Assembly: GCA_031370785.1 (NCBI GenBank)
Contig: JANMQY010000079.1
Location: 32,001-96,000, forward strand
Direction of reading: 5' to 3'
Length of the DNA stretch: 64,000 nucleotides
Origin: Candidatus Eiseniibacteriota bacterium
GTDB lineage: Bacteria; Eisenbacteria; RBG-16-71-46
Below are positions 8,640-26,050 of the stretch, one piece after another. The notes under the pieces are model-generated. The model was not told the DNA's origin and did not search any database. It saw only the letters and a program-made list of their open reading frames with translations. The translations under genes and the position numbers were made by a program. The stretch's first letter is position 1, and each line of letters begins with the position of its first letter.

Positions 8640-8862
8640 CGGCTCGTCGCTCCCGACCCTTGAGCTTCCCCGCCACTCGAATCCGGGAGTTCGCCCCGCG
8701 CGGCACCGCACGCATCGCGCGCTCTGCGCGCGCGCACGCCGACTGTTCGGAAGCTGGGAGGGCGCGGTCCGCGCGGCGGGACTCGACTACGCCGAGCTGG
8801 TCACGATTGCACGGCAGCGCGCCTCGCGCGCCCGCCGGCTCACCTGGCGTCGCGCGCGCTAA
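8640..8862 (+). pseudogene. Gene remnant carrying one 'FGSWxxAxxAAG' (homing-endonuclease-associated repeat-like) helix motif
   Basis: The frame of ORF 8440..8862 reads ALCARARRLFGSWEGAVRAAGLDYAEL. There is no convincing start codon or RBS. Confidence 0.4.
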
Positions 8863-9551
8863 GCGCGACCGAAGTCGTCGCCGGCTTCGGTTTGCTCTTC
8901 GGCGTGGTGCTTGATCACCCGTGCCTCGGCGATGAACACCACTTCTTCGGCGATGTTGGTGGCGAGGTCGGCGACACGCTCCAGGTTGCGCGCGACCAGG
9001 ATCAGCTCCATCGCCCGGGTGATGGTGGTCGGATTCTCCACCATGAAACTGAGCAGCTCGCGGAAGACCTGATCGTTCAGACTGTCGACCACGTCGTCGG
9101 CGCGGCACAGGCGCCGCGCGCTCACGGCATCCTGGCGCACGAACGCGTCGAGCGACTCGCGCAGCATCCCGTTCGCGAGCTCGGCCATTCGCGGGATGTC
9201 CACCAGCGGCTTGAGCAGGGGCTGTCCGGCCAGCCGCATCACGCTTCCGGCGATATTCACCGCATGGTCGCCGACCCGCTCCAGGTCGTTGTTGATCTTG
9301 AGCGCGGCGGTGATGAAGCGCAGGTCGCGCGCCATCGGCTGCTGGAGCGCGAGCAGGCGCAGGCAGCGCTCGTCGATGTCGAGCTCCATGCGATCGATGA
9401 TCTTGTCGTCGGCGAAGACCTCGCGAGCCAGGGTCTCATCCAGACGGCGCAGCGCGTCGATCGACTTGAGCACGATGCTCTCGGAGTGTCCGCCCATGAG
9501 CAGCAGCTGCTGCTTGAGCTGCTCCAGCTCGCGTTCGAAATGCCTTTCCAC
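8859..9551 (-). CDS. phoU: Phosphate signalling protein PhoU
   Basis: GTG at 9551 (VERHFERELEQLK), QPMARDLRFI, DLERVGDHAVNIA and LERVADLATNIAEEV. Confidence 0.93.
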   Translation of the reverse strand: MERHFERELEQLKQQLLLMGGHSESIVLKSIDALRRLDETLAREVFADDKIIDRMELDIDERCLRLLALQQPMARDLRFITAALKINNDLERVGDHAVNIAGSVMRLAGQPLLKPLVDIPRMAELANGMLRESLDAFVRQDAVSARRLCRADDVVDSLNDQVFRELLSFMVENPTTITRAMELILVARNLERVADLATNIAEEVVFIAEARVIKHHAEEQTEAGDDFGRA

Positions 9552-9583
9552 GTGTGTTCTCCGCCCCGGTTTGGCGCCGGCGC

Positions 9584-10447
9584 TCAGCCGAAGCGCCCGG
9601 TGATGTATTCCTCGGTGAGCTTCTGGCGCGGGCGCGTGAACAGCTCCCGCGTATTGCCCACCTCGATCAGCTCTCCCGACAGCATGAACGCGGTCCGATC
9701 CGAGATGCGCGCGGCCTGCTGCATGTTGTGGGTCACGACCACGATCGTGTAGCGCGATTTGAGATCCAGCACCAGCTCTTCGATGCGTGCGGTTGCGGTC
9801 GGGTCGAGCGCGGAGGCCGGCTCGTCCATCAGCAGGACCTCGGGCTCGACCGCGAGCGCGCGCGCGATGCACATGCGCTGCTGCTGCCCGCCCGACAGCT
9901 GGAGCGCGGAGCGGCCGAGCCGGTCGCGCACCTCGTCCCACAGCGCCGCGCGGCGCAGGCTGTTCTCGACGTGCGACTCGAGCTCGCCACGGTCGCGAAT
10001 CCCGAGCAGCCGAAGTCCGAAGGCCACGTTGTCGAAGATGCTTCGCGGAAAGGGATTGGGGCGCTGGAACACCATGCCGACGCGACGCCTGAGCTCGACC
10101 GTGTCGGTCGATGGTGCGTAGACATCGATCTCGGACACCCGGATCTCGCCCGTGACGCGCACGCTGGGAATCAGATCGTTCATCCGGTTGAATGCGCGCA
10201 GCAGCGTACTCTTGCCGCATCCCGACGGGCCGATGATCGCGGTGACCCCCCGCTCCGGAACGTCGAGGGATACCGACTTGAGCGCCTGGTGGTTTCCGTA
10301 CCACAGGTTGAAGTCGCGCGTGCAGATGCGCGGCTCCACGACGCGCCCGCTCTCGGCATCGCGCGCCGGGTCCGGGTTGCGAGGCGCGGATCCGGCGGCG
10401 ATCTCCGGAAGGATCGTCCGGATCGTGGGAGGAGCTTCCAGAGACAC
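9584..10447 (-). CDS. pstB: Phosphate ABC transporter ATPase
   Basis: [39 protein letters not shown] and YITGRFG. GTG at 10447 follows GGAG. Confidence 0.93.
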
Positions 10448-10449
10448 CC

Positions 10450-11334
10450 CTAGTTTCTCCCGGGCAATCGCCGCAAGGTCAGTCGCAGGATGCCGGACAT
10501 CAACGTGACGAGCAGGAGCAGCACGAGCGCTCCGGTCCAGGCCTGGCGGTTCCAGTCCTCGTAGGGCGCCTTGGCGTAATCGTAGATCATGACGGGAAGC
10601 GAGGCGATTGGCTGGTCCAGGCGAATCGACCAGAACCGGTTGCCGAGCGCGGTGAACAGCAGCGGCGCGGTCTCCCCGGCGGCGCGCGACAGCGCGAGCA
10701 GGCTCGCGGTCACGATGCCGGCCGAGGCCGACGGGATCACCACCGACTGGATCGCGCGCCAGCGCGGCGCTCCCAGCGCGAGCGCGGCCTCGGTGTAGGA
10801 GCGCGGCACGAGGCGCACCACTTCCTCGGTCGAGCGCACGATGGTCGGCAGCATCAGGATGGCGAGCGCGACGCCGCCAGCCAGGGCCGAGAACCGGCCC
10901 ATCGGCAGCACCACCAGCCCGTAGGCCGCGACCCCGACCACGATCGACGGCACGCCGGCGAGAACATCGGCGGTGTAGCGCACGATCATTCCCAGTCGGC
11001 CTCCGCCATACGTCGCGAGCCACACGCCGGCGCCGACTCCGACCGGCACCGCGATCAGGCCGCCGAGCCCGGTCACGATCAGCGTCCCGATGATCGCGTT
11101 GGCCATGCCGCCGCCCGGCTCTCCGACCGGCTTGGGCAGATTGAAGAAGAACGAAGGGCGAAGCGCAGGCAGACCCTTCGCGAGCAGGTGCCACACGATG
11201 AAGGCGAGCGGCAGCACCACCAGCGCGGCCGCGATCCAGCACGCCGCAAGGAGCGAGGCGTTGTGAATCAGCCGCAACCTCGAGGGGCCGCGCCCGGCCG
11301 AACGGGCCAGCGCGTCAGGCCGTGCCGGCGACAT
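10450..11334 (-). CDS. pstA: Phosphate ABC transporter permease
   Basis: [18 protein letters not shown] and [12 protein letters not shown]. Confidence 0.92.
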
Positions 11335-12310
11335 CGCGTCTTCCTCCGGTCGCGAGGTGGACGAGCAGGCGCGCCCCGGCGTTGACCACCAGCGTCAGCG
11401 CGAACAGCACCAGCGCCACCTCGATCAGCGCGGAAAGGTAGAGAGCGCCGGTCGCCTCGGTGAACTCGTTGGCGATCACGCTCGCCATGGTCGAGCCGGG
11501 CGCGAGCAACGAGGCCGAGATGCGATTGGTGTTCCCGATCACCATGGTCACCGCCATGGTTTCCCCGAGCGCGCGCCCGAGCGCAAGGATCACCGCGCCG
11601 AGGATTCCCGGCCTCGCGGCGTCGACCGCGACCGCGATCGCCTCGGCGCGGGTCGAGCCGAGCGCCAGCGCCGCTTCACGCAGCGAACGCGGCGTCGCGA
11701 GCAGGATCTCTCGCGAGATCGAGACCACCGTCGGCAGCACCATGATGGCGAGCACGATGCCCGCGTTGAGAACGCCGATGCCGAAGGGGGGACCCGTGAA
11801 CAGCGGCATGAACCCGAGGTGCTGGATCAGCCACGGCTCGACGGCGGTGCGCAGGACGGGCGCGAGCACGAACAGTCCCCACAGCCCGTACACGATGCTC
11901 GGGATCGAGGCGAGCAGATCGACCACGAACGCGACGGCTTCGCCGACCCGGGGCGGCGCCAGCTCGGAGAGGAACACCGCGGCCCCGATCCCGAGCGGCA
12001 CCGCGAGCAGCATCGCGATCGCCGAGGTCACCAGCGTGCCGTACACGTAGGGCAGCGCGCCGAACTTCTCCGCGACCGGATCCCAGGTGGTGGAGGTGAA
12101 GAACTGCCACCCGAAGGTGCGCAACGAGAGCTGCGCGCCCCGAGTGGACTCGAACACGATCAGCGCGGCGACCAGGAACACGAACAGGGCGCACGCGCCG
12201 AGCAGCCCCTGGTATGCGGTGTCGGCATGTGCCCAGGGCTTCGCCCGTGCGATCGGTCGGGTGAGCACCGGCAGATGGCTCGCGCCGGCCGTTCCGGTTC
12301 GGGAGGTCAC
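11315..12310 (-). CDS. pstC: Phosphate ABC transporter permease
   Basis: WDPVAEKFGALP, SIPSIVYGLWG and GRALGETMAV. Confidence 0.92.
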   Translation of the reverse strand: MTSRTGTAGASHLPVLTRPIARAKPWAHADTAYQGLLGACALFVFLVAALIVFESTRGAQLSLRTFGWQFFTSTTWDPVAEKFGALPYVYGTLVTSAIAMLLAVPLGIGAAVFLSELAPPRVGEAVAFVVDLLASIPSIVYGLWGLFVLAPVLRTAVEPWLIQHLGFMPLFTGPPFGIGVLNAGIVLAIMVLPTVVSISREILLATPRSLREAALALGSTRAEAIAVAVDAARPGILGAVILALGRALGETMAVTMVIGNTNRISASLLAPGSTMASVIANEFTEATGALYLSALIEVALVLFALTLVVNAGARLLVHLATGGRRDVAGTA

Positions 12311-12326
12311 CGGCTGTCCCGGGCGC

Positions 12327-13388
12327 TCACTGCAGCACCGGCCTGCCGTTCGCGGTCAGCTTGAGCAGGTTCGCATCGTTGATCTTGATCACCGCCTCGG
12401 GCAGCCGGGCGTAGTCCAGCGCCTCGGCCATGCTCTGTCCGTCGTGCATCGCCCAGCGGATGAATTCCGCGAGCGTGCGCGCTTTCTTCCCGTCCTTCAG
12501 GTCCCTGTAGACGAGCAGATAGGTGAGCCCCGCGATGGGGTAGGCGTCCGGGCTCGCCGAGTTCACGATTGGTGCGCGTACGTCCTTCGCAAGCGCCGCC
12601 TCCGCGCCGGCGACGGCCGCGGTGGTCGAAGCCAGCGAGGGTTCGACGAACTTGCCCGCCTTGTTGCGCAGCGCCGCGATCGGAAGCTGGTTCTGCTTCG
12701 CATACGCCAGCTCCACGTAGCCGATCGCGCCCGGAGATTGCCGTATCAGGCCGGCCACGCCCTCGTTGCCCTTGCCGCCGACACCGGCCGGCCAGCTCAC
12801 CGAGGTGTTGGCGCCGACCAGCTCCTTCCACTCGGTGCTGACCGACGAGAGGTAGGTGGTGAAGATGTTCGTCGTGCCGCTGCCATCCGACCGGTGCACA
12901 GGCAGGATCGGCACCGGAGGCAGCGCGACGCCGGGGTTGGCGGCGGCGATCGCCTTGTCGTTCCACACCGTGATCCGGCCGAGAGAGATTCCGGTCAGGG
13001 CCTCGGGCGTGAGCTGGAGCCGGCCCTTGAAGTCGGGAAGGTTGTAGGCGATCGCGACCGCCCCGGCGACGGTCGGGAAATGGATGATCGGGCGCGGCAG
13101 CTCGCGGAGCCGATCGTCCGAGAGCGCCGCGTCGCTGGCCCCGAAATCGACGGTGCCGGCCTTCACCTGCTGGATGCCCGCGCCGCTGCCGATCGACTGA
13201 TAGTTGATGCCCACCCCGGTCTTCTTCTGGTACGTGTCGAACCACTTCGAGTAGATGGGATAGGGAAAGGTCGCGCCTGCCCCGGTCAGATTCTGCGCCC
13301 GCGCACAACTGGCCGGACCGAGCGCCGCCAGCGCCAGGCCGAGGAGCGCCGCGACTCCGGTCACCTGTCGCTTCAATGTGCTTCTCAT
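12327..13388 (-). CDS. pstS: Phosphate ABC transporter substrate-binding protein
   Basis: Signal peptide from the ATG at 13388; GAGATFP, YQSIGSGAG, DFGASD and RSDGSGTT. Confidence 0.95.
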   Translation of the reverse strand: MRSTLKRQVTGVAALLGLALAALGPASCARAQNLTGAGATFPYPIYSKWFDTYQKKTGVGINYQSIGSGAGIQQVKAGTVDFGASDAALSDDRLRELPRPIIHFPTVAGAVAIAYNLPDFKGRLQLTPEALTGISLGRITVWNDKAIAAANPGVALPPVPILPVHRSDGSGTTNIFTTYLSSVSTEWKELVGANTSVSWPAGVGGKGNEGVAGLIRQSPGAIGYVELAYAKQNQLPIAALRNKAGKFVEPSLASTTAAVAGAEAALAKDVRAPIVNSASPDAYPIAGLTYLLVYRDLKDGKKARTLAEFIRWAMHDGQSMAEALDYARLPEAVIKINDANLLKLTANGRPVLQ

Positions 13389-13411
13389 GGGTCTGGCCCT
13401 TTCGTTGAGTT

Positions 13412-14617
13412 TCACGACTGCGGCCTGCTGAACCGGTAGAACAGAGTGATGCGGGCCTGCAGGTCGTGGTGAGCGGGGGCGACCGCCGTGCCCTTCGCCA
13501 GATACTGAGTGGCCTCGACGTTGGGAATGACGTGGACGTCCTTGAACGGCTGCCAGTCGACACCCGCGATCCACAGCTGCGAATCCACGCGATTGCTCGC
13601 GCGACGATTTGGAATCCACTGGTCGAAGCGCGCCAGCAGCACGACCGTGGAGCTTAACGTCGCGCGGGCAAAACACGAGTACCCGCGCGGCTCCTCGGTC
13701 GGGGCCGGACCCTTTCGATTCAGCCGGTCGAGCGCCTCGAAACCGATCGCGACGCGCCTGAATTCATATCCCGCGAAGATCTTCCAGGTGGTCTGGTCGT
13801 TGTTGATCGCCGCGCTCTCGGGCTGGACCGGCTGCGCTCGGTCGAGGTTCACCCGCACGCCCTGATAGTCCGCGTACGGCTCGATGCGCAGAGCGCCCAC
13901 ACGCAGCGGCAGCGCGAAGTAGAGCTTCTTGAACCGATCGGTCTCCGGTTTCTGGCCGGTGCCATCGCCGATCGCGGCGATGTAGCCGACATGGTGATCC
14001 GGGTCGGCGAATCCCTTGAGCTCGAGGGCGAGGTCGGTCGCATTGCCGATCGAGCGGAAGTCGCCAATCGTCTTCTCGACCGCGCGGTATTGCCAGAAAT
14101 CCTCGGAGTTCTCCCACGTTGGAGTGACGATCATGCCGACGTACAGATCGGTGCGCGGCAGGACGCCCTTGGCCTGAAGGTAGGCCGAGCGCAGGGCGAC
14201 TCCGATCTTTCCGTCCGAGGTCAGGGACTTGCTGTCGGCTTCGAGTCGAAAGCGCGTGGCGAGGCGGACCGAAAGATCGTTGTCGAGCTGGAAGTAGACG
14301 CGGCGGATCTGAACGCCGTTCAATCCCTGGGTGATCGGTTTCTTTCCGTCGATGTTGGTCTGACCCAGGTCCGCGCCGTTCACGTCGTAGACGTGGCTGG
14401 GGTCACCGGAGAGATTGCCGTAGAGGTCACCGAACACCAGGCCGCTGATCCGTCCGCGCGGGAAGTCGGGGGGGGTCTGCGGAACCACGATCGCGATCGG
14501 GATCGGCGGCGGGGTCGAGGCGCTATCCGGCGAGGTCGAGCCGGTCGCGGACATCTGTGCGGAGCAGGGGACCGCAACGGTCAGCGCTGCGGCAATGAAC
14601 CAGGCGCGTCCTGTCAT
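13412..14617 (-). CDS. Outer-membrane porin, probably phosphate-selective (OprO/OprP-like)
   Basis: Signal peptide (MTGRAWFIAAAL), IRRVYF motif, amphipathic beta strands and a near-terminal YRF. It is the first gene of the pst operon and has an AAAGGAG RBS. Confidence 0.72.
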   Translation of the reverse strand: MTGRAWFIAAALTVAVPCSAQMSATGSTSPDSASTPPPIPIAIVVPQTPPDFPRGRISGLVFGDLYGNLSGDPSHVYDVNGADLGQTNIDGKKPITQGLNGVQIRRVYFQLDNDLSVRLATRFRLEADSKSLTSDGKIGVALRSAYLQAKGVLPRTDLYVGMIVTPTWENSEDFWQYRAVEKTIGDFRSIGNATDLALELKGFADPDHHVGYIAAIGDGTGQKPETDRFKKLYFALPLRVGALRIEPYADYQGVRVNLDRAQPVQPESAAINNDQTTWKIFAGYEFRRVAIGFEALDRLNRKGPAPTEEPRGYSCFARATLSSTVVLLARFDQWIPNRRASNRVDSQLWIAGVDWQPFKDVHVIPNVEATQYLAKGTAVAPAHHDLQARITLFYRFSRPQS

Positions 14618-14710
14618 GGCGCTCCTTTCGGGATGGAGTGTCGCTGCAACTGGAGTTTCGAGGGGTTCCACTTCGGCCGCCGCATGTCCCGGTAAAAGAA
14701 CACGGCGGGA

Positions 14711-14804: not shown

Positions 14805-15146
14805 TCATTCTTCGTCGGTCCGGGCGCGTTCGCGTTTCCGGCGCGCGGCAACCCGCTTGGCGGCGAGGCGCGCCTCGACCGCGGAGCGGCTCGGCCGGGT
14901 CGCGTGACGTGGCTTGGGCTTGTGGGCGCGGCGCTGGATCTCGGCCCACACCCTTTCGAGTGCGGCTTCACGGTTGCGCAGCTGCGAGCGGCTCTCGGTG
15001 GCGATGCGGGTGATTCCGGTCGGGCGATGGCGCACGCGCACGCTCGACTCGGTCTTGTTCTTCTTCTGTCCGCCCGGCCCCGACGATTTGTAGGCAACGA
15101 CATCGCAGTCGCGGGCCAGGCGCTCGAGATGTTCCGGCAACGCCAT
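14805..15146 (-). CDS. arfB: Peptidyl-tRNA hydrolase / ribosome rescue factor ArfB-like (RF-1 domain)
   Basis: SSGPGGQ, ESRSQLRNR and a basic tail PKPRHATRPS...KR. Confidence 0.75.
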   Translation of the reverse strand: MALPEHLERLARDCDVVAYKSSGPGGQKKNKTESSVRVRHRPTGITRIATESRSQLRNREAALERVWAEIQRRAHKPKPRHATRPSRSAVEARLAAKRVAARRKRERARTDEE

Positions 15147-15455
15147 GGCCGCATGCTAGCGCAGGAGCGGCCGCGTTTCGCTGCCGTTTGGTGAGCGTTT
15201 ACTTCCCGCCATGCCCGGCGAATGACCTATTGCATCGAAGGTGCGAACTCGGGGATCATCGTGCGGTCGCCAAGCCGGCCCGGGTCTCACACCTCGGACC
15301 GGAGGCATGGCACGCGCGGGACGCGCGCCATCAGCCCCACAGGAAATCGAAGCGCGTCATCGTGCCATCGCAACCTGCCACGCCGGCGCGCCTCTTGGAG
15401 ATCCACCATCCCCCGTTCCTCCTGCCCCGCATCGGGCCCGGCATTCGCACGCCGC

Positions 15456-17672
15456 GTGGCCCGGATCTTCGCGATTGCCGTTTTTGGAGCACTCACGCTG
15501 TTCGGTAGCCCACGCGCGGGTAATCGCATCTGGACGGGCGTCGCGCCGCGGGCCCGGAGCATCGAGGCAATCGCGCGCGATCCTCTGAACCCTTCTCGCA
15601 TGTGGGTCGCCTCGTTCGGAGCCGGCGTGTACCGGTCGCTGGACGGGGGGGTGACCTGGAAGGCATATCGCTCGGGCCTGATCAACACCTTCGTGCGCTG
15701 TCTCGCAGTTCAGCCCCTGCATCCGGATTCGGTTCTGTGCGGCACTAACGACGGCGTGTTCCTCAGCGTGGACGGTGGCGTGACGTGGAAGGCTCTGCTC
15801 TCGACGACTCGATCGGTGCGCTCGCTCGCCATTCATCCGGTGCGGACCGGCGTCGTCTATGCGGCGCTGTACGGCGGCGGCGTCTACAAGTCGCTGAACG
15901 CGGGCGCGAGCTGGAGCGCGATCAACCTGGGCCTGGTCAACACCAACGTGCGTGACATCGCGATCTATCCGACGCGGCCCGAGACCCTGCTGGCTGCGAC
16001 CGGGACCGGCGGCGGAATTCATCGGAGCTTCAACGGTGGCTTGAGCTGGGCCCAGGTGCCGGACACTACGGCAACTCGGGGCGCGGCGGAGCAGGTGCAG
16101 TTCGACGCGCTCGACCCCTCGCGAATCTATGTCGCCGAGCTGGACCGCGGCGTGCTGCGCAGCACCGACGGCGGCACCAACTGGGGGCGCATCAACGGTG
16201 GCCTGTCGTCGTTCCGGGGACGATCGCTGGCGGTGGTGGACACGCTGCGCTGGTTCGGCACCGACGGCGCCGGCGTTTTCGTGACCTCGCTCAACGATAC
16301 GATGTGGCACCCCGTCGACATCGGGCCGACCGGCCGGGTCGTGGATGCGCTGTGGTCCTCGGCCGCGGAACCGTCCACCGCCCTCGCGGGTACTGACGGA
16401 GACGGGATGTTCCTCACTTCCGACCGCGGAGCGTCGTGGATCCCGGTAGACGGCGGCCTGATGTCCACTCAGGCGTTTTCACTCGCGGTGCGCCCATCCA
16501 CTCATGTCGTCTATGCCGGCACCGGCTTCGGCGATCAGTTCTGGCGGAGCGCGGACGTCGGCGCGTCGTGGACGCGCGCCACGCGATTGGTCACGAACAA
16601 TTCGGAACATGGTGTCGCACCGGATCCGCTGCTGGCCGGTCGAGTGTATCTGTCGGCGTATGGCTCGGGGGTGTACCGCAGTGATGACGATGGCGCGACC
16701 TGGCTGAATCCCGACAGCCTGAACGCAACGCTCACCAACCGGTTCGTCCGCCCGCTGCTGGTCTGGCCGGGCCAGAGCGAGCACCTGTTCGTCGGCACCG
16801 GCATCGGACCATTCGAGAGCACGGACGGAGGCGCGCAATGGGCTTCACGCGTCGGGAACCTGCCGGCGGGCTTCGGCGTGCACTCAATGGCGCTGGTGCC
16901 GGGGGTGCCGGCCACGTTGTATGTGGGGAACGACAGCGCCGGCGTCTACCGCTCGAACGATGGCGGCACGACCTGGAATCAAAAATCGGCCGGGCTGCTC
17001 TCGCCATTCGTTCGCGCCATCGTAGTGGACGCCGTCGATCCGCTCCGGGTATACGTCGCGACCGACTCGGGAGTATTTCGCAGCGTCGATGGGGGTAACG
17101 CGTGGGTCGCGGCGCGCGCCGGGCTCCCCGCGGGGCTGGTGGTGCGGGCGCTGGTGCAGGATCCGGCGCACGGAGCGCTATTCTGCGGCGTCTATGGAGG
17201 CGGAGTGTTCGAGAGCGTCGATGGTGCCGGCACCTGGCTGCCGGTCTTCGGGCAGCAGGGGCTCAGTGATCTGCACGTACGCGCGCTTGCGGTGGACACC
17301 GGCCAGCGCGCCCTCTATGCCGGCACCGAGAACGGTGTCGCCTCGGTGACCTTCTACGACGCCCTCGACGTGCCGCGGCCGGTTGCGGGATCCAGGCTTA
17401 GCCTTTCGGCCTCGCCCAACCCTTCGTCCGGGTCCGGACCCGAGCTGCGCTTCGCAATGGCACGTGCCGGCTCCGCGCAGCTTTCGATCTACGACACGGC
17501 CGGGCGCCGGGTGCGGGTGCTCGCCGACGCGTGGCTCGAAGCCGGGGAGCACGAGGCGCGCTGGGACGGCCGGGACGCCCGCGGCTTTCCCGCGCCGGCC
17601 GGTCTCTATTTCGCGCGGCTGGTCGTACCCGACGGAGTCCGTGTCGTGCGTCTCGCGCGCCTCATGAGGTGA
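15456..17672 (+). CDS. Secreted Asp-box/BNR (VPS10/sortilin-like) beta-propeller protein with C-terminal FlgD-Ig-like domain
   Basis: About 13 SxDGGxTW repeats and a C-terminal SPNPS...LSIYDTAGRRVRVL...WDGRD..G..APAGLYFARL. The start is uncertain: the ORF is open from 15222 and a signal-like segment follows the GTG at 15456. Confidence 0.75.
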   Translation: MARIFAIAVFGALTLFGSPRAGNRIWTGVAPRARSIEAIARDPLNPSRMWVASFGAGVYRSLDGGVTWKAYRSGLINTFVRCLAVQPLHPDSVLCGTNDGVFLSVDGGVTWKALLSTTRSVRSLAIHPVRTGVVYAALYGGGVYKSLNAGASWSAINLGLVNTNVRDIAIYPTRPETLLAATGTGGGIHRSFNGGLSWAQVPDTTATRGAAEQVQFDALDPSRIYVAELDRGVLRSTDGGTNWGRINGGLSSFRGRSLAVVDTLRWFGTDGAGVFVTSLNDTMWHPVDIGPTGRVVDALWSSAAEPSTALAGTDGDGMFLTSDRGASWIPVDGGLMSTQAFSLAVRPSTHVVYAGTGFGDQFWRSADVGASWTRATRLVTNNSEHGVAPDPLLAGRVYLSAYGSGVYRSDDDGATWLNPDSLNATLTNRFVRPLLVWPGQSEHLFVGTGIGPFESTDGGAQWASRVGNLPAGFGVHSMALVPGVPATLYVGNDSAGVYRSNDGGTTWNQKSAGLLSPFVRAIVVDAVDPLRVYVATDSGVFRSVDGGNAWVAARAGLPAGLVVRALVQDPAHGALFCGVYGGGVFESVDGAGTWLPVFGQQGLSDLHVRALAVDTGQRALYAGTENGVASVTFYDALDVPRPVAGSRLSLSASPNPSSGSGPELRFAMARAGSAQLSIYDTAGRRVRVLADAWLEAGEHEARWDGRDARGFPAPAGLYFARLVVPDGVRVVRLARLMR

Positions 17673-18856
17673 TGCGGGGCATGCTCGTTCCGGGATTTCT
17701 GACGCTCGGCCTCGTGGCGTACGGCCTGTGGGAGTCGCGCTCCCACGCGGCCATGCTGTCCCGCATTCCGACCCGCGTCCACGTCAACGGCACGCGCGGA
17801 AAGTCCTCGGTGACCCGGCTCATCGCCGGTGGATTGCGCATGGGTGGCGTGAGGACTTTCGCCAAGACCACCGGCACCATGGCGCGCATGATTCGTCCCG
17901 ACGGCGCAGAGGTGGACGTGTATCGAGTCGGCCGGCCCAACATCATCGAGCAGACACGCATCATACGCCGCGCGGTGGAAGCGGACACCCACGCGCTGGT
18001 CGTCGAGTGCATGGCGGTCTCACCCGAGCTACAACCGCTCTCCGAGCTGCGGCTGATCCGCAGCACGGTCGGCGTCATCACTAATTGCCGCGCCGACCAC
18101 CTTGACGTGATGGGACCGACCACCGACGACGTCGCGCGGGCGCTGGCGCAGACCTGCCCGCTGCGTGGACACCTGTTCACCGCGGAGCGCGATCGCGCGT
18201 GGATCCTCGAATCGGTCGCGCGCGATCGCGGCACGGATCTGCACGTGATCGATTCTGCGGACGTCACGCCCGCCGAGATGGCGTCTTTCTCGTACATCGA
18301 GCATGCAGAGAACGTCGCGCTGGCCCTTGCGGTGTGCACGCACCTCGGGGTGTCGCGCGAGGCGGCGCTGGCGGGCATGCAGGTGGCGACTCCCGACCCG
18401 GGCGTGCTTCGCCGGTTCGTGGTTCACGTCGGGGGCAGAACGGTCGAATTCGTGAATGCGTTTGCCGCCAATGACCCGGACTCCACCCTGCTCATCTGGG
18501 AGCGCCTCGGACTCGAAGTGCCCCGCGCCGGAATCCAGCGAATCGTTCTGGCCCACTGCCGCCCCGATCGGATACAGCGCTCGGGCCAGATCGCGCAACT
18601 GGTCGCCACCCGACTGAAGTCGGATCACGTCGTGCTCTGCGGAGAGGATACCGATCTGGTGGCGTTTCACGCGGTCAAGGCGGGACTGCCGCGCGAGCGA
18701 ATCAGCAATCTCGGAGGGCGCGGCGCGGAAGCGGTGTATGAACATGTTCTCGATCTCGTGAAGGAGAAGGGCATCGTGGTCGGAATCGGCAATATCGTGG
18801 GACTGGGGGAGGAAATCGTGCTCCATTTCAGAAACCGGATGGTGCGTGGTGGTTGA
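17672..18856 (+). CDS. pgsB: Poly-gamma-glutamate synthase PgsB/CapB
   Basis: RVHVNGTRGKSSVTRLI, AKTTGT, PNIIEQ, VECMA, DHLDVMGPT, NAFAANDPDST and GIGNIVG. The ATG overlaps the upstream stop (TGATG). Confidence 0.92.
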   Translation: MRGMLVPGFLTLGLVAYGLWESRSHAAMLSRIPTRVHVNGTRGKSSVTRLIAGGLRMGGVRTFAKTTGTMARMIRPDGAEVDVYRVGRPNIIEQTRIIRRAVEADTHALVVECMAVSPELQPLSELRLIRSTVGVITNCRADHLDVMGPTTDDVARALAQTCPLRGHLFTAERDRAWILESVARDRGTDLHVIDSADVTPAEMASFSYIEHAENVALALAVCTHLGVSREAALAGMQVATPDPGVLRRFVVHVGGRTVEFVNAFAANDPDSTLLIWERLGLEVPRAGIQRIVLAHCRPDRIQRSGQIAQLVATRLKSDHVVLCGEDTDLVAFHAVKAGLPRERISNLGGRGAEAVYEHVLDLVKEKGIVVGIGNIVGLGEEIVLHFRNRMVRGG

Positions 18857-19298
18857 ACAGGCGATCGGCCTCGGTCTGGTGATCAGCCTGATCTTCTCGG
18901 AGACTCTCGGACTGGCGGCCGGAGGCATGGTGGTGCCCGGATACCTCGCGCTCACCATCCACGAGCCGCTGCGCATCCTCGGCACCGTGCTGATCGCGCT
19001 GCTCACCTTCGGCGCGGTGAGGTTCCTGTCGCTCTATACGCTCATCTATGGGCGGCGACGCATCGTGGTCGCCGTGCTCATCGGATTCGTATTCGGCGCA
19101 CTGTCGCGCAACCTGCTGTTCTTCCGCTGGCACGAGACTCCCGTCGACATTCGCACCATCGGATACGTCATCCCCGGCCTGATCGCCAACTGGATGGAGC
19201 GCCAGGGCGTGCTACAGACCCTGTGCGTCATGACCACCACCGCGGTTCTGGTGCGCCTGCTGTTGATGCTGATCAACGGCGGAACCCTCATCCGATGA
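18846..19298 (+). CDS. pgsC: Poly-gamma-glutamate biosynthesis protein PgsC/CapC
   Basis: GLAAGGMVVPGYLAL, IYGRRR and IGYVIPGLIANWMERQG. Confidence 0.92.
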   Translation: MVVEQAIGLGLVISLIFSETLGLAAGGMVVPGYLALTIHEPLRILGTVLIALLTFGAVRFLSLYTLIYGRRRIVVAVLIGFVFGALSRNLLFFRWHETPVDIRTIGYVIPGLIANWMERQGVLQTLCVMTTTAVLVRLLLMLINGGTLIR

Positions 19299-20422
19299 GT
19301 CTGGCCCGCGCCTCCACTCCCGCCCTCGCCGCGCTTGCGCTGCTGTCGCTCGTCGTCTATGCCGTCGCCGAGCGCTCGGTGACTCCCGTGCACGCCGAGG
19401 CTTATCGCATCAAGCTCGACGCCATGCGCGTGATGCAGCGGGCGGAGCATGCGGTGCTCGAGGCCAAGCGCGCCCGCGGCATCTCGATCGATGCGAAGAA
19501 CGATCCGGTTCCCACCGGACTGATCGGCCCGCAATTCACTTTGATCACCACGGATCGCGGCGCACAGTCCGCCAAGAGTCTTGCCACGCATTCGAGTTTC
19601 GCGGCCGCCGCCGCGCAGATGATGCTGCAGGGCGGGGTTCGTCGGGGGGACCTGGTGGCGGTCGGCGTGACCGGGTCGCTTCCCGGGCTCAACGTCGCGG
19701 TGTTCTCGGCCTGTCGCGCAGTGGGCGCGGAGCCGGTCGTGATCACTTCGGCAGGAGCCTCGATGTTCGGCGCGACCGATCCCGAGATGACCTGGCTCGA
19801 CATGGAGTCGGCGATCGTCGCGCGCGGCCTGTGGCCGGACGGCTTCCGATCGATCGCTGCCTCGCTCGGTGGCGGCGGCGACGCCGGGCGCGGGCTGTCC
19901 CCGACCGGGCGCCAGCTGCTGCGCGATGCCATCGACCGCAATCATGTTCGATTCCTCGATCCACCCACCGTGTTCGAGGCGGTCCGCGAGCGCGTCGCTC
20001 TCTACGACTCGGTGGCCGCCGCCCGGGGCAGGCCGATCCGGATGTACGTCAACGTCGGAGGCGGCGTGGCGAGTCTCGGCGGCGCGCAGAATGGACGGTT
20101 GATCCCGGCCGGCCTCAGTCCGCGCCTCACCACTCGCAACTATCCGAATCGCGGCGTGATCAACGTTCTCGGCGAACGGCGCATTCCCGTGATTCATCTG
20201 CTGCAGGTGGAGAAGCTGGCACGCGAGTTCGAGATCACGGACGCCGCGGGCGAGCCGGTCAAGCCCGGCCGCGGGCTGCTGTTCGTGAAGTATCGCTACA
20301 ACCTCGCGATCGTGGCAGGGGCGGCGGTGCTGGTCCTCTTCGCCAACCTGTTCGTGCTGCGTCACGACATTCGCCAGAAGCTGCTCGGCCAGCCCCATCC
20401 GGAAAGGATTCCGCTCGCATGA
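19295..20422 (+). CDS. pgsW: Poly-gamma-glutamate system protein (PgsW family)
   Basis: DP..TGLIG..FTLITT, GSLPGLN, ASMFGATDPEMTWLDME, ASLGGGGD, YVNVGGG and IPVIHLL. N- and C-terminal TM helices; ATGA overlap with pgsC. Confidence 0.82.
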   Translation: MSLARASTPALAALALLSLVVYAVAERSVTPVHAEAYRIKLDAMRVMQRAEHAVLEAKRARGISIDAKNDPVPTGLIGPQFTLITTDRGAQSAKSLATHSSFAAAAAQMMLQGGVRRGDLVAVGVTGSLPGLNVAVFSACRAVGAEPVVITSAGASMFGATDPEMTWLDMESAIVARGLWPDGFRSIAASLGGGGDAGRGLSPTGRQLLRDAIDRNHVRFLDPPTVFEAVRERVALYDSVAAARGRPIRMYVNVGGGVASLGGAQNGRLIPAGLSPRLTTRNYPNRGVINVLGERRIPVIHLLQVEKLAREFEITDAAGEPVKPGRGLLFVKYRYNLAIVAGAAVLVLFANLFVLRHDIRQKLLGQPHPERIPLA

Positions 20423-21330
20423 AGGCGTCGTACCTGTTCCTGCTCGTGTTGTTGCTCGCATCAGCTCCCGACCCGCGCTCTCCAGGCGTGCAGGCCGCGG
20501 GCTGGGTCACCATCGAGAAGCTGACGGACGCGAAACCGGTTCACGTGCTGGTGCGCGGCCAGGACCGGGTCTACTTCCGGATCACGCCCCAGAGGCCGCT
20601 CAACGTCGCAATCGATGGGCCGGTCCGCGTGCGCGTCGTGACCCGGGTCGAGCTGCGCGGCGCCGGGGACACGATCGCGACCTACAAGGTCCGCGCGGTC
20701 GAGAACGGTCGCGAGCTCGAGATTCTCGACACCGAGAGCTCCGCCGCTTCCGAGACCCGGCTGGCCGACGGCCCGGGTGTGCTCGGCAAGAGCCGGCGCA
20801 TGACGTTCGATGTGCCGGCCGGCCGCCATCGCATCCAGCTCGCGCTCGAAGGCACCGCGTCCGCGCTGGTCAGGCTGCAGCTCTCCCGTGAAAAGATCGG
20901 AGACGAGGCCATGGTCTCGCTCACCCCGACCGAAGCGCCGCGCAGCGTCTCGGTGATCGAGGGCGAGAAGACCGTGCCGTACTACAGCGTGCTCCCCGGC
21001 CAGCCGGTGCGGCTTCGCGTGATCGGACCGACGACGCTCGAGCTCATGACCCGCCTCGATTTCGACGCCACCATGCGCGGGACACAGACCTATCGAGTGC
21101 GGGTGACGGGGCGTGGAAAGGTGCTTCGTGAAGCGGAGTTCAAGACGACGAAGGCCACGACTGCCACTTACGCCAATCTGCCGGATCGCGTGCCTTCGAA
21201 ATTCGACCGCGTGGTCGTTCGTCTGGGAGGGGGCGTGCATGAGCTCGCCATCGAGCTGCTCTCGCCCGTTCGCGGGTCGGCCGAGATCCGCGCGCGCATC
21301 CCGCAACCATCCGTTGGCAACGAGGAATGA
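20419..21330 (+). CDS. Secreted hypothetical protein made of two tandem homologous beta-rich domains
   Basis: Signal peptide MKASYLFLLVLLLASA and an internal repeat (YFRITPQRPLNVAIDGPVRVRVVTRVEL / YYSVLPGQPVRLRVIGPTTLELMTRLDF). ATGA coupling to pgsW. Confidence 0.75.
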   Translation: MKASYLFLLVLLLASAPDPRSPGVQAAGWVTIEKLTDAKPVHVLVRGQDRVYFRITPQRPLNVAIDGPVRVRVVTRVELRGAGDTIATYKVRAVENGRELEILDTESSAASETRLADGPGVLGKSRRMTFDVPAGRHRIQLALEGTASALVRLQLSREKIGDEAMVSLTPTEAPRSVSVIEGEKTVPYYSVLPGQPVRLRVIGPTTLELMTRLDFDATMRGTQTYRVRVTGRGKVLREAEFKTTKATTATYANLPDRVPSKFDRVVVRLGGGVHELAIELLSPVRGSAEIRARIPQPSVGNEE

Positions 21331-22481
21331 TGGGAAACCCAGAGGTGCGCCGAAACCGCCGTCTCAGGACCGCAGCCACCGCCGTTCTCGCCGCACTCAC
21401 GCTCGGCACGGCCGACGCCGGAGCGGCGCAGAGAGTGAATCTCACACTCGGGCTCGGAGCGATCTACGACACGAACCTGCTGAAGTACTCGGCCGACCAG
21501 CGCACCCTTTTCGAGAGCGGCACTCGGCCCGACCGGTTCTCGATCCATTCGCTGGATGACCTGACGTGGAATCCGTTCGTCGCGCTCGCCTGGGATGCCG
21601 ACGCGGGGCGCGGCCGCCACCACATCCTGCGCCTTAAGAGTGAGGGGGAGTTCCACGATCGCAACCCCACCGCGGACTTCCACTCGATCAGTGCCGGCTG
21701 GCGCGAGACCTGGCGCGGCGGGCGCAGATTCTCGGTGGGATATTACGGACTGCCGCACTACTATCTGCGGCAGCTCGTCGACGAAGACTACGTGACGCCG
21801 TTTCCCGGGCTGGCGCTCCATCGTCGCGCGCAATTCGATCTGCAGATCGCCTCCACGTCGTGGGGCCAGCGCATCGCCCGGAATACCGACACCGAGCTCG
21901 CATACCAGTTCGAAAACCGGCGCTACGTGCCGGACTTTCGCGAGCGAGACTCGAAAACCCACCAGGGCGAGCTGACCTTCGGTTTCACGGGGCTGCCGGA
22001 TCGCGGCTCGATCGATGTTTCGGGAGGGTGGCGGGTGAGCAACGCGAAGGGCGTGGATGGTGACGAAGTTGCGGGCGCCCCTCCCGACGATCAGGACCTG
22101 ACCTATCACGGTCCGATCGCATCGGTGCGCGGTCGTGCCGAGCTCGGGCGAACCGCGCGCTGGCGGGTGATCGGCGATGCCGGCTACCAGTTCGGGAGCC
22201 GCACGTACGATTCGAAGGTGCCTGCCGATCGCTTCCACTTCGGGCGCCGCGATGCGCTCAATGCGGTCGAGTTCGGGCTGCGCGCCCAGTTTCGCCCTCA
22301 CCTGAGCGCCCGCGGATTCTTCCGTCACGAGTCCAACAACGCACACCACGGTGCCAACGTGGCGTCCACGACCGACCTGGGAAGCTACTCGCAGAATCAG
22401 GTCGGCCTGGTCGTGGACTGGTCGGGCGCAATCTGGCGGAGTCAGCGCGCCACGGCCGCCGAGCCGGACACGACGAATTGA
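21327..22481 (+). CDS. Putative outer-membrane beta-barrel protein
   Basis: Signal peptide, YDTNLL motif near the N-terminus, many alternating aromatic beta strands and a final NQVGLVVDW strand. Confidence 0.65.
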   Translation: MMGNPEVRRNRRLRTAATAVLAALTLGTADAGAAQRVNLTLGLGAIYDTNLLKYSADQRTLFESGTRPDRFSIHSLDDLTWNPFVALAWDADAGRGRHHILRLKSEGEFHDRNPTADFHSISAGWRETWRGGRRFSVGYYGLPHYYLRQLVDEDYVTPFPGLALHRRAQFDLQIASTSWGQRIARNTDTELAYQFENRRYVPDFRERDSKTHQGELTFGFTGLPDRGSIDVSGGWRVSNAKGVDGDEVAGAPPDDQDLTYHGPIASVRGRAELGRTARWRVIGDAGYQFGSRTYDSKVPADRFHFGRRDALNAVEFGLRAQFRPHLSARGFFRHESNNAHHGANVASTTDLGSYSQNQVGLVVDWSGAIWRSQRATAAEPDTTN

Positions 22482-23167
22482 TGCCTGCTCCTCGCCTCCG
22501 CCCGGGTCTGTTGCCGACATTGATCGCGGCCGCAGGGATCGCCCTGTTCGTAACGGGCTGCCATACCGCGCGCATCCTCGGGCCGCCGCCGCCGTTGCGC
22601 GCCGCGTCGGCGTCCAGCTATGCGGTGGATGTGGAGTTTGCGGAGCCGCTCGATCGCGCGAGCGCCGAAGACCCATCGCACTATGCGCTGGTCGCCGTCT
22701 CCGGTGGCGCCGCCGCGGTCATCCAGAGCGCGACCCTGGTGGACACGCTCTACGGCCGAGTCGTACAGCTCCTGATCCCGGACTGGCTCACCACCAATCC
22801 CGATACCACGGAGTTCGACCTCACCACGAGCGGCGTGATCGCGCTGGACGGGAGATCGACCGGCTCACGCACGGTGCGCTTCGCTACCGGGCTCTCCTAT
22901 CGCGCGCCGGTGCGCGCGCTGCTGGGCGCGCATTGCAGCTCGTGTCACGGGGCTTCACGCGCCGACGGAAGCTATCGCACCGACAGCGAGGCGGAGCTGG
23001 TGGGCGGCGGCAGAAATGCGACGCCCAATCTCATCGCCGGCGATCCCAACAGCCTGCTGCTGGTGAAGTGCCGGCCGGGCAACTCGATGTTCAATCGTGG
23101 CAACCTCTCCTTCCTCGACTTCGAGATCCTTCTCAACTGGGTCGTGAGTTACTCGGCGCGTTCGTAG
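22478..23167 (+). CDS. Lipoprotein with Ig-like domain and C-terminal c-type cytochrome domain
   Basis: Lipobox LFVTGC, VEFAEPLDRASAEDPSHY Ig-like segment, CSSCH heme motif and GDPNSLL...GNSM. Confidence 0.72.
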   Translation: MMPAPRLRPGLLPTLIAAAGIALFVTGCHTARILGPPPPLRAASASSYAVDVEFAEPLDRASAEDPSHYALVAVSGGAAAVIQSATLVDTLYGRVVQLLIPDWLTTNPDTTEFDLTTSGVIALDGRSTGSRTVRFATGLSYRAPVRALLGAHCSSCHGASRADGSYRTDSEAELVGGGRNATPNLIAGDPNSLLLVKCRPGNSMFNRGNLSFLDFEILLNWVVSYSARS

Positions 23168-23270: not shown

Positions 23271-24671
23271 ATGCTCACCGCATCCCGCGTGGCGCCGATC
23301 ATCGTGCTCGCGCTCGCGGGCGCGCTGCTCTCGGCTCCGGATGCCGTGGCGAAGAAGCGCCCCGCGCCCCGTCCGGCCGCCCCGGTGACGGCATCCTCGG
23401 CGCTCGCGCTCCGCGTGCAGCGCGTCACGCTCGGCAACGGACTCACTGTGCTGCTTCACGAGGACCACAGCGTGCCGACGGTCGCGTTCTGGCAGTGGTA
23501 TCGCGTCGGCTCGCGCAACGAGCGGCCGGGCATCACCGGGATCTCGCACTTCTTCGAACACATGATGTTCAACGGATCGAAGAACGTCCCGCCCAAGGAG
23601 TACGACCGGATCCTCGAATCGAACGGCGGCTACTCGGACGCGTTCACCGACTACGACATGACCGCGTACTTCGAGGAGATCGCATCGGACCGGCTGGGAG
23701 TCGTGCTGCGCCTCGACTCCGACCGCATGGCGGCGCTCTCGCTCCTGCCCGAGCAGCTCAAGAGCGAGATCGACGTGGTGAAGGAGGAGCGGCGGTTCCG
23801 CGTGGACGACGACATCCGGGGCATGCTCGACGAGCCGCTGTGGGCGACCGCGTTCGAGGCCTCGCCCTATCACTGGCCGGTGATCGGCTGGATGGGCGAC
23901 CTCAACCGGATCACGCGCGAAGACATGGTCGAGTACTTCCGGATTCACTACGCGCCGGACAACTGCATTCTCGCGCTGGTCGGGGATTTCGATTCGAAGG
24001 CCGCGCTCGACAGCATTCGGACGTACTTTGGCTCGATTCCGCGCCAGCCGGCGCCGCCCGAGCCGGTGGACTCGGAGCCCGAGCAGAGAGGCGCTCGCCA
24101 CCTCGAGGTGCACTATCCGGCGCAGAACGTCACGTTCCTCGCGGGTTACAAGGCGCCGGCCGCGAAGAGCGCCGATGCGCCGGTGCTCGATTTACTGCGC
24201 TCGATTCTCGGCGACGGCGAGTCGTCCCGGCTGCACCAGGCGCTGGTGTACGAGGGGCAGATGGCGATCGAGGCCTCCTGCGCGTACCAGGCCCGCATTG
24301 CTCCTGGCCTCATGGAATTCACCGTCGAGCTGAAGCCGGGCCGCAGCGCACAGGAAGGGTTGAAGGCGCTCGACTCGGTGTTGACGCACCTGTCGGACCA
24401 GGGCCCGAGCGAGCGCGAGCTCCAGAAGGCGCGCAATCAGCTCGAGGCGGCGGTGGTGCGCTCGCTCAAGACCAACAACGGCGTGGGCCAGCAGCTCGGC
24501 TACTTCGAGCACGTGTTCGGGGACTACCGCACACTGTTCCAGACCGTGGAGCGCTATCGCACGGTCAGCGCGGAGGACTGCCGGCGCGTGGCGAAGCAGG
24601 TATTCGATGCGAAGCGGCGCACGGTGGCGGTGCTCGTGCCCGACAAGGGCGCCGAGGATGCCGCACCATGA
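23271..24671 (+). CDS. M16B zinc peptidase, active subunit
   Basis: GSRNE..GITGISHFFEHMMFNGS (HxxEH), VKEERR and a signal peptide. Confidence 0.9.
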   Translation: MLTASRVAPIIVLALAGALLSAPDAVAKKRPAPRPAAPVTASSALALRVQRVTLGNGLTVLLHEDHSVPTVAFWQWYRVGSRNERPGITGISHFFEHMMFNGSKNVPPKEYDRILESNGGYSDAFTDYDMTAYFEEIASDRLGVVLRLDSDRMAALSLLPEQLKSEIDVVKEERRFRVDDDIRGMLDEPLWATAFEASPYHWPVIGWMGDLNRITREDMVEYFRIHYAPDNCILALVGDFDSKAALDSIRTYFGSIPRQPAPPEPVDSEPEQRGARHLEVHYPAQNVTFLAGYKAPAAKSADAPVLDLLRSILGDGESSRLHQALVYEGQMAIEASCAYQARIAPGLMEFTVELKPGRSAQEGLKALDSVLTHLSDQGPSERELQKARNQLEAAVVRSLKTNNGVGQQLGYFEHVFGDYRTLFQTVERYRTVSAEDCRRVAKQVFDAKRRTVAVLVPDKGAEDAAP

Positions 24672-26050
24672 GCGCGCGCCGGATCGGAATCGCGTTGCTG
24701 GCGGCGGGTCTGGTTCACTTCGCCCCGCCGGCGAGCGCGGCGGCGGTCGCGTTGCCGCCGGCCGTGCGCGTCACGCTCAAGAACGGGCTGGTCGTGATCG
24801 TCAGCCCCACCCACCGCCTGCCGCTGGTCGACTTTCGGCTGGTGGCCCGCGCCGGATCGAGCAGCGATCCCACGGGCAAGGAAGGCGTCGCCGGGCTCAC
24901 CGCGGATCTTCTGACCCAGGGCGCTGGAGCGCGCGGCGCTCGCCAGCTCGCCGAGGACATCGCGTTCATCGGAGGCACGCTCGAGGCGGGCGCGCTCGCC
25001 GAGCAGCTCGTGGTCACCTGCGAAGTGCTGAAGAAGGACATGGCGACCGGGCTCGAGCTGCTCCACGACGTGCTGGTCGCGCCCGCGTTTCCCGCCGAGG
25101 AGTTCGCGCGCAAGAAGGACGAGGCGCTGAGCGCGATCGTGGCCGCGCGGGATGATCCTTCGTCGGTGGCCGATCGCGCACTGCTTCCCTTCCTGCTTGG
25201 CACGGGCCCGCTCGCGCATCCGGTCTCGGGCTGGGAGAAATCGGTCGGCTCGCTCACTCGCGACGACGTCACCGCGTTCCACCGCCGGTTCTTGACGCCC
25301 GACAACGCGATCCTCGCCGTGGTCGGGGACGTGGATCCGCAGGCGATGATCGCCCTGCTCCAGCGCACCTTCGCCGACTGGAAGCCGAGCGGCCAGAAGC
25401 GGACCCTGGCCGCCGACATGCCGGCGCGCGCCGCAGGGGTGCAGCTGCGCATCGTGAGCAAGCCCGAGGTGACCCAGACCCAGATCCGGCTCGCCACGCT
25501 CGGCGTCGCGCGCAATCATCCGGACTATTTCCCGATCCAGGTCGCGAACACGATTCTCGGCGCCGGATTCACTTCGCGGCTGGTCAACGAGATCAGAGTC
25601 GTGCAGGGACTGAGCTACAGCATCTCGAGCGGCTTCACCATGTATCGCAACGCCGGCACGTTCGAGGTGAACACGTTCACCAAGAACGAGACCCTGCGCA
25701 AGACCATCGACGAGACCCTGCGCGTGATGCGCCAGTTCATCTCGCAGGGCCCCAGCGATGAGGAAGTGGCAAAGGCGAAGCGCTACCTGACCGGGCTCTA
25801 CCCGCTCGGGCTGCAGGCGCCCGACGATCTCGCGGCCGCGCTGGTCAACGTCGAGTTCTACGGGCTCGATCCGCAGTACATCGCGAACTACGACGCGAGA
25901 GTCAACGCGGTCACCCCGGACGACGTTCGCCGCGCGCTGCGCTCGTACTTCGACGTGGACAATCTCAGGATCCTCGTGGTCTCCGACCCGGCGACGGCGA
26001 AGGGCGCGCTCGAAGGGCTCGGACCCATCGAGGTGACCGCGATCCCGTGA
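24668..26050 (+). CDS. M16B peptidase, inactive partner subunit
   Basis: ATG at 24668. It has the M16 fold without HxxEH and keeps SRLVNEIRVVQGLSY (R/Y pair). Confidence 0.85.
   Translation: MSARRIGIALLAAGLVHFAPPASAAAVALPPAVRVTLKNGLVVIVSPTHRLPLVDFRLVARAGSSSDPTGKEGVAGLTADLLTQGAGARGARQLAEDIAFIGGTLEAGALAEQLVVTCEVLKKDMATGLELLHDVLVAPAFPAEEFARKKDEALSAIVAARDDPSSVADRALLPFLLGTGPLAHPVSGWEKSVGSLTRDDVTAFHRRFLTPDNAILAVVGDVDPQAMIALLQRTFADWKPSGQKRTLAADMPARAAGVQLRIVSKPEVTQTQIRLATLGVARNHPDYFPIQVANTILGAGFTSRLVNEIRVVQGLSYSISSGFTMYRNAGTFEVNTFTKNETLRKTIDETLRVMRQFISQGPSDEEVAKAKRYLTGLYPLGLQAPDDLAAALVNVEFYGLDPQYIANYDARVNAVTPDDVRRALRSYFDVDNLRILVVSDPATAKGALEGLGPIEVTAIP

Follow-up and report, generated by a model that had tools for sequence, protein, structure and literature searches.

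A poly-gamma-glutamate synthase operon with a candidate export route across the outer membrane in a Candidatus Eiseniibacteriota bacterium

The operon described here comprises seven genes at positions 15456-23167 of a 64,000-nucleotide stretch of contig JANMQY010000079.1 (the window), from the genome of a Candidatus Eiseniibacteriota bacterium. In our judgement it probably encodes a poly-gamma-glutamate (PGA) synthase together with a trans-envelope export route and an optional pair of accessory proteins acting at the cell surface. The synthase genes pgsB, pgsC and pgsW are followed by a gene for an unnamed protein, here called X, and by a gene for a predicted outer-membrane beta-barrel, the last two being the proposed export route; these five genes are the conserved unit. 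A PGA export module of diderm bacteria is the best reading of the operon because both the co-occurrence of X and barrel with the synthase genes and the predicted fold of the barrel agree with it. The first-pass annotation had proposed a system of seven genes. The five-gene core of that proposal stands, and the two remaining genes, for a secreted propeller and a heme lipoprotein, form a lineage-restricted pair outside the core.

The seven open reading frames all lie on the + strand, and each junction overlaps when read directly in the sequence:

15456..17672, + strand: accessory secreted BNR/Asp-box beta-propeller of 738 aa, with a signal peptide and a C-terminal FlgD-Ig domain (Pfam, motifs)
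17672..18856, + strand: pgsB, ligase subunit of poly-gamma-glutamate synthase, with Walker A motif GTRGKS (TIGR04012)
18846..19298, + strand: pgsC, integral membrane subunit with 4 hydrophobic segments (TIGR04011, PF14102)
19295..20422, + strand: pgsW, with membrane helices 8-27 and 337-363 flanking a predicted periplasmic alpha/beta domain (TIGR04332)
20419..21330, + strand: X, unnamed basic two-repeat protein, predicted periplasmic (repeats, linkage, fusions, charge)
21327..22481, + strand: unnamed predicted 14-stranded outer-membrane beta-barrel, candidate exit channel (predicted fold)
22481..23167, + strand: accessory lipoprotein (Cys27) with an N-terminal beta-rich domain and a monoheme c-type domain, CxxCH at 152-156 (motifs)

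These genes, their order and their overlaps are as first annotated, and only the start of the last gene had to be corrected, ATG at 22481 being more likely than TTG at 22478. The propeller and pgsB genes meet in TGATG at 17670-17674, as do the barrel and lipoprotein genes at 22479-22483. ATGA junctions lie at 19295, 20419 and 21327, and pgsB and pgsC share 11 nt at 18846-18856 (8 nt if the second GTG is used). The frame of the propeller gene is already open from 15222; the start at 15456 is supported because a strain about 94.5% identical carries frame-shifting indels at 15341 and 15401, upstream of it, and because the hydrophobic signal of the protein starts there.

Identification of the synthase genes, as named in the first-pass annotation, is secure by NCBIfam profile search. 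PgsB scored 431.5 bits against TIGR04012 (cut-off 222.7), PgsC, directly adjoining it, 127.7 bits against TIGR04011 (cut-off 96.45), and PgsW, next to both, 270.6 bits against TIGR04332 (cut-off 100). PgsW carries conserved enzyme-like motifs; it had no Pfam match (PF09587 included), and a fold search returned only background Rossmann-like rows and no close solved fold. The absence of pgsA/capA and capD that had been noted holds for the operon, whose proteins gave no Pfam match to PF09587 (CapA/PgsA) or PF01019 (CapD/GGT), and fails for the genome, where two full PF09587 genes above cut-off (C22, C133) and one GGT gene (C133) occur, all on other contigs and so unlinked to the operon. At C22:1668-5432 (L106), the closest paralogue of the operon propeller (E 1e-38, with a FlgD tail) follows shortly after one of the two CapA-family genes. 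Among named organisms the host is closest to Candidatus Eisenbacteria, and marker genes put its genome at 100% completeness. The genome contains SprA_N, two PorV proteins above cut-off and 67 FlgD_ig matches, and therefore the host has an outer membrane and a system like the type IX secretion system (T9SS).

The evidence for the core comes from its distribution. Five genes were searched in the same 151 genomes of the phylum, giving totals of 50 for pgsW, 50 for pgsB (48 of them common to the pgsW set), 51 for X, 61 for the barrel and 17 for the lipoprotein. In 49 of the 50 pgsW genomes X was the gene immediately following pgsW, and in 2 of the 101 others it appeared as weak partial matches, so that its expected association with pgsBCW was borne out. 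The barrel occurred in 47 of the 50; in the corresponding genome slices it followed X immediately in 30, was 6-12 kb upstream in 7 and fell outside the slice in 10. Similar linkage was found among metagenome loci spanning 33-72% GC, a set made of the best 80 of 582 loci and consequently biased toward closer relatives: X adjoined pgsW in 66 of the 67 loci with enough DNA, and the barrel was present in 44 of 49 evaluable loci. Three loci (L003, L116, L117) have the barrel relocated ahead of pgsB with linkage kept. The block extends to named Acidobacteriota, Cloacimonadota and Neomarinimicrobiota genomes. Tree distances over the 70 loci with all four genes correlated at 0.73 for PgsW and X, 0.76 for PgsW and barrel, 0.68 for X and barrel and 0.63 for PgsB and PgsW; these values show co-inheritance only, because kin share history.

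X itself is a two-repeat protein, as annotated, its halves aligning at 24% identity over 102 aa (E 3e-6), with an invariant Arg and Tyr in each repeat (R76, R152, R212 and Y52 among these residues). Its relatives number 380 at 50% clustering. The family is basic, with a median charge of +4.1 per 100 aa and positive values for 88% of 121 sequences, and the charge of the window X stands at the 90th percentile of the host proteome. PgsW-X fusions occur in three parts of the PgsW tree (L075, L121, L180); proteins P0076, P0153 and P0199 have the same layout, P0076 being the L121 protein, and the others may coincide with loci already listed. Furthermore, 13 loci, of which one family contributes 11, carry X-like repeats in frame with the barrel, and L180 has this arrangement in addition to its PgsW-X fusion. 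X is thus a core partner of PgsW and a candidate scaffold for the polymer.

The call of an outer-membrane barrel was upheld by structure prediction, which gave a 14-stranded barrel (pLDDT 91). There was no sequence match to solved structures, and a search with the predicted model placed CymA, a 14-stranded outer-membrane barrel, nearest. CymA is an oligosaccharide import channel, and this match suits another reading, in which the polymer stays periplasmic or surface-held, X binds it, and the barrel is either a porin for uptake and recycling of gamma-glutamyl oligomers or a Wzi-like anchor. The association with pgsW is also tighter for X than for the barrel (49 against 47 of 50), and barrels persist without pgsB. 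We nevertheless consider such a role quite unlikely: gene overlap couples the barrel to the synthesis genes, the maps of the X/barrel clade show no recurring uptake transporter or GGT gene, GGT and TRAP permease instead mark a clade lacking the barrel, and a TPR-bearing barrel and copies linked to GT2 synthases fit export. With CymA and OmpG, 14-stranded porins that serve as import or general channels, identity is 6-10%, and a common fold shows no function.

Polymer export is favoured because of the PgsW-X and X-barrel fusions, the one barrel with an N-terminal TPR domain (among 25 scanned; library scans found no TPR match among the window proteins) and the barrel copies beside a polysaccharide synthase. 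The neighbours of barrels outside pgs loci are GT2 and beta-helix genes, genes of an ABC transporter or an operon for cytochrome oxidase, and we favour the view that the GT2-linked copies point to a polymer channel. The barrels outside pgs loci as a whole nest among pgs-linked barrels in three places. They require 3 changes on the tree, and their grouping as one clade was rejected (approximately unbiased test, p-AU 6e-7, on a tree using 27 of 96 rows and with the group chosen after an earlier tree had been seen). At inferred lumen positions, Arg/Lys outnumber Asp/Glu in 68 of 88 pgs-type barrels, compared with 1 of 8 others.

Two of the loci with GT2 neighbours (L097:9538-14335 and L098:7146-14202) combine a GT2 synthase, a beta-helix protein and the barrel, with a chondroitinase-B-like gene in L098, and are a candidate for an undescribed synthase-dependent polysaccharide locus. 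Another arrangement, in three genomes (L099:7220-17156, L100:9925-16385, L101), places the barrel with a CarboxypepD-repeat/FlgD protein, an ABC exporter and an unnamed P-loop protein. Neither pgsB nor X occurs on the contig of L155 (1-4404), which carries the barrel, a 433-aa lipoprotein-like open reading frame, pgsC and pgsW.

Several observations weigh against export of PGA through X and the barrel. The barrel also occurs in 14 of the 101 genomes without pgsW, and close homologues are found in genomes without pgsB; these orphan copies show that the barrel can act without PGA. An alternation estimate gave the window barrel a lumen without net basic charge. Genomes G036, G154 and G155 yielded no X. 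A Cetobacterium-type diderm clade has pgsBCW linked to ggt, with no X or barrel nearby, and contigs from RNA libraries gave no evidence on co-transcription of the operon genes. The original proposal, that the extra genes provide periplasmic passage, outer-membrane export and a surface role, is partly supported: the linkage of X and barrel and the barrel fold fit it, and the barrel is not exclusive to PGA.

The barrel might alternatively serve proteins, moving the lipoprotein as a Slam-like translocon or the protein that bears the C-terminal domain (CTD) as a PorV-like shuttle, with PGA leaving by some other way. This we regard as unlikely. A number of loci (L001, L002, L003, L046, L053, L069, L090 and others) retain the barrel next to pgsBCWX and gave no sign of a lipoprotein of this kind following it, and X-like repeats are fused to the barrel. 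Furthermore, the window barrel (P0006) had no hit to SlipAM PF04575, to which 3 of 63 scanned barrels gave weak hits, and no PorV (PF19572) was found in the window; the two PorV genes lie elsewhere in the genome, where the search gave C142, C16 and a weak C32 match. A linked C25 protein was also considered as PorU and rejected (33.6 vs 420 bits).

The accessory genes have a different history from the core. The propeller agrees with its first description in its Sortilin/BNR Pfam matches, 8 Asp-box-like motifs and FlgD_ig tail, and it is likely a cargo of the T9SS-like system. The lipoprotein, likewise as described, has the lipobox Cys27 in 13 of 14 aligned rows (the remaining row is incomplete) and CxxCH in 14 of 14. 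Together with heme-c assembly genes in the host genome, these features mark 22481-23167 as a predicted c-type cytochrome lipoprotein; against PSCyt1 it scored 20.8 (cut-off 22). Matches occurred in 17 of the 151 genomes, full-length in 15 (one split in two pieces). All 15 are pgsW-positive with the gene always directly after the barrel, so the proposed association with pgsBCW is confined to pgsW genomes and reaches 15 of 50.

In the Eisenbacteria-type clade of 36 loci, 15 were incomplete and set aside, and the 21 with enough DNA on both sides had both accessory genes in 14, neither in 7 and one alone in 0. The 7 loci without the pair fall in about four places on the PgsW tree, beside loci having both (FastTree, moderate support). 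No propeller orthologue was found in any of four pair-lacking genomes, two of them 82% and 89% complete, which gave at most partial paralogues at 30-35%; in a control genome (G023) the orthologue was recovered at 55% and full length. Propeller and lipoprotein are probably one functional unit, because genes at opposite ends of the operon vanish together.

This behaviour bears on two further explanations. One takes barrel and lipoprotein as a split porin-cytochrome electron conduit merely located in the operon. TGATG couples the two genes, an orphan barrel precedes cytochrome c and an oxidase operon in two genomes of one genus, and the heme domain has a weak match in 8q1w (E 4e-4), an entry code mentioned in a paper about redox domains outside the cell. 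However, the cytochrome accompanies only 15 of the 47 barrel-plus-pgsW genomes, co-varies with the propeller and not with the barrel, and has a single heme, so that we hold this idea to be exceedingly improbable.

The other proposes that PgsBCW make short gamma-glutamyl chains on an envelope lipid or on T9SS-like cargo, an anionic anchor comparable to A-lipopolysaccharide (A-LPS), with CTD protein and lipoprotein forming the apparatus of attachment. A CTD-bearing protein lies just upstream of pgsB in many lineages (a C25 peptidase in 18 of 38, a propeller in 5 of 38), an HGSNAT-type acyltransferase is linked in several, the window propeller (P0001) matches PorZ faintly (E 0.0036), and the enzyme-like motifs of PgsW would suit such chemistry. 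PgsB is, however, a full-length polymer synthase equivalog, the PorZ and PorU scores are far under cut-off, the system has a patchy distribution (50 of 151 genomes) and both accessory genes are dispensable in 7 loci; we judge this explanation very unlikely.

In other lineages, the upstream slot holds a C25 peptidase or a C45 hydrolase, and the downstream slot LVIVD lipoproteins, the HGSNAT-type acyltransferase or small lipoproteins. Other occupants of the upstream slot are a 631-aa protein with a TPR-like start, from sequence reading (L129:4412-6304), and a 1145-aa propeller-CTD protein (L132:2894-6328). In L059 (2988-6059), L071, L085 and L088, a gene for a CapA-domain protein with PKD, CBM and a T9SS-type tail is divergent from the C45 hydrolase gene that precedes pgsB. 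In L088 (G140:C6:870894-873478), pgsB, pgsC and pgsW are in pieces, by frameshifts or assembly errors.

Bacillus PgsB/PgsC enzymes polymerise glutamate, and the Bacillus systems PgsBCA(E) and CapBCADE share with the operon adjacent, overlapping genes for PgsB and PgsC equivalogs. The operon differs in having PgsW in place of a linked PgsA/CapA or CapD, and two extra core envelope genes where there is an outer membrane to cross. The CapsuleFinder PGA model comprises only CapABCDE and PgsS, in a study reporting PGA loci in most phyla (PMC5542703); its dataset and the PgsB/PgsC lists in S2 of PMC4497714 concern distribution, not export genes. Section 8.2.4 of a 2026 review (PMC13721041) describes chain export as incompletely understood even in Bacillus. 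Our literature search, from which subscription journals were largely absent, found no paper on the function of PgsW, X or the barrel.

Outer-membrane barrels of alginate, cellulose and poly-N-acetylglucosamine (PNAG)-type export systems have 16-18 strands. On predicted models, the operon resembles these synthase-dependent exopolysaccharide systems (AlgK/AlgE, BcsC, PgaA, PelB/C) in apparently joining an inner-membrane processive synthase, a periplasmic scaffold and a dedicated outer-membrane barrel in one operon; the TPR-barrel relative has the BcsC/PgaA layout, and barrel copies lie beside GT2 synthases. The likeness is one of working only: the window synthase is a Mur-type ligase and not a GT2 enzyme, the polymer is a polyamide, the X scaffold would be a two-repeat, non-TPR protein, and the window barrel has 14 strands.

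For the export module we propose the following route. By analogy with the Bacillus enzymes, PgsB and PgsC, assigned by profile, would polymerise glutamate at the inner membrane. PgsW, for which the predicted topology has two anchoring helices and a periplasmic alpha/beta domain, may fill the place of Bacillus PgsA. Binding of the polyanion would fall to X, which, as linkage and fusions suggest, would connect PgsW with the barrel; through the barrel, given its predicted fold, the chain would cross the outer membrane. Secretion of the propeller would use the separate T9SS-like machinery and not the operon barrel. At the surface, propeller and heme lipoprotein might hold or process the polymer, a speculative role for two genes that are lost together. 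More tentatively, and with clearly less confidence, PgsBC, PgsW, X and the barrel could form a continuous conduit secreting a non-ribosomal polypeptide, with the propeller and heme lipoprotein as a surface module capturing or redox-modifying polyglutamate; PgsW, X and barrel would then be three families seemingly without a characterised member.

The operon names two testable genes, X and the barrel, for the outer-membrane step of PGA export, and its parts could improve PGA secretion in Gram-negative production strains. The accessory pair suggests a surprising connection among polymer, T9SS-like cargo and heme chemistry.

Diderm pgsBCW loci divide into an X/barrel type and a GGT type. Five PgsW sequences, including that of Cetobacterium somerae, formed a separate clade (support 0.97, midpoint root). 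The Cetobacterium-type cassette has the same three genes, with pgsW so named in RefSeq, and differs in its linked ggt, DUF6305, TRAP permease and AstE-like genes, the window belonging to the larger X/barrel clade. Four loci (L010, L014, L061, L191) represent this second type with pgsBCW, ggt and DUF6305-type genes; the TRAP permease and AstE-like gene are added in L010, L014 and L191, and L010 and L014 have the order pgsW-pgsB-pgsC.

Downstream of the operon, after a 103-bp gap in which no terminator was found, two M16 peptidase genes occupy 23271-26050; M16 genes neighbour the locus in several family members, at times on the opposite strand. Upstream, a divergent phosphate uptake cluster at 8859-14671 includes a PstS-type binding protein (Pfam match) and, labelled from sequence reading, permeases, an ATPase, a PhoU-like gene and an unnamed porin-like gene (13412-14671). 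An ArfB-like gene with an RF-1 domain, likewise labelled, lies at 14805-15146.

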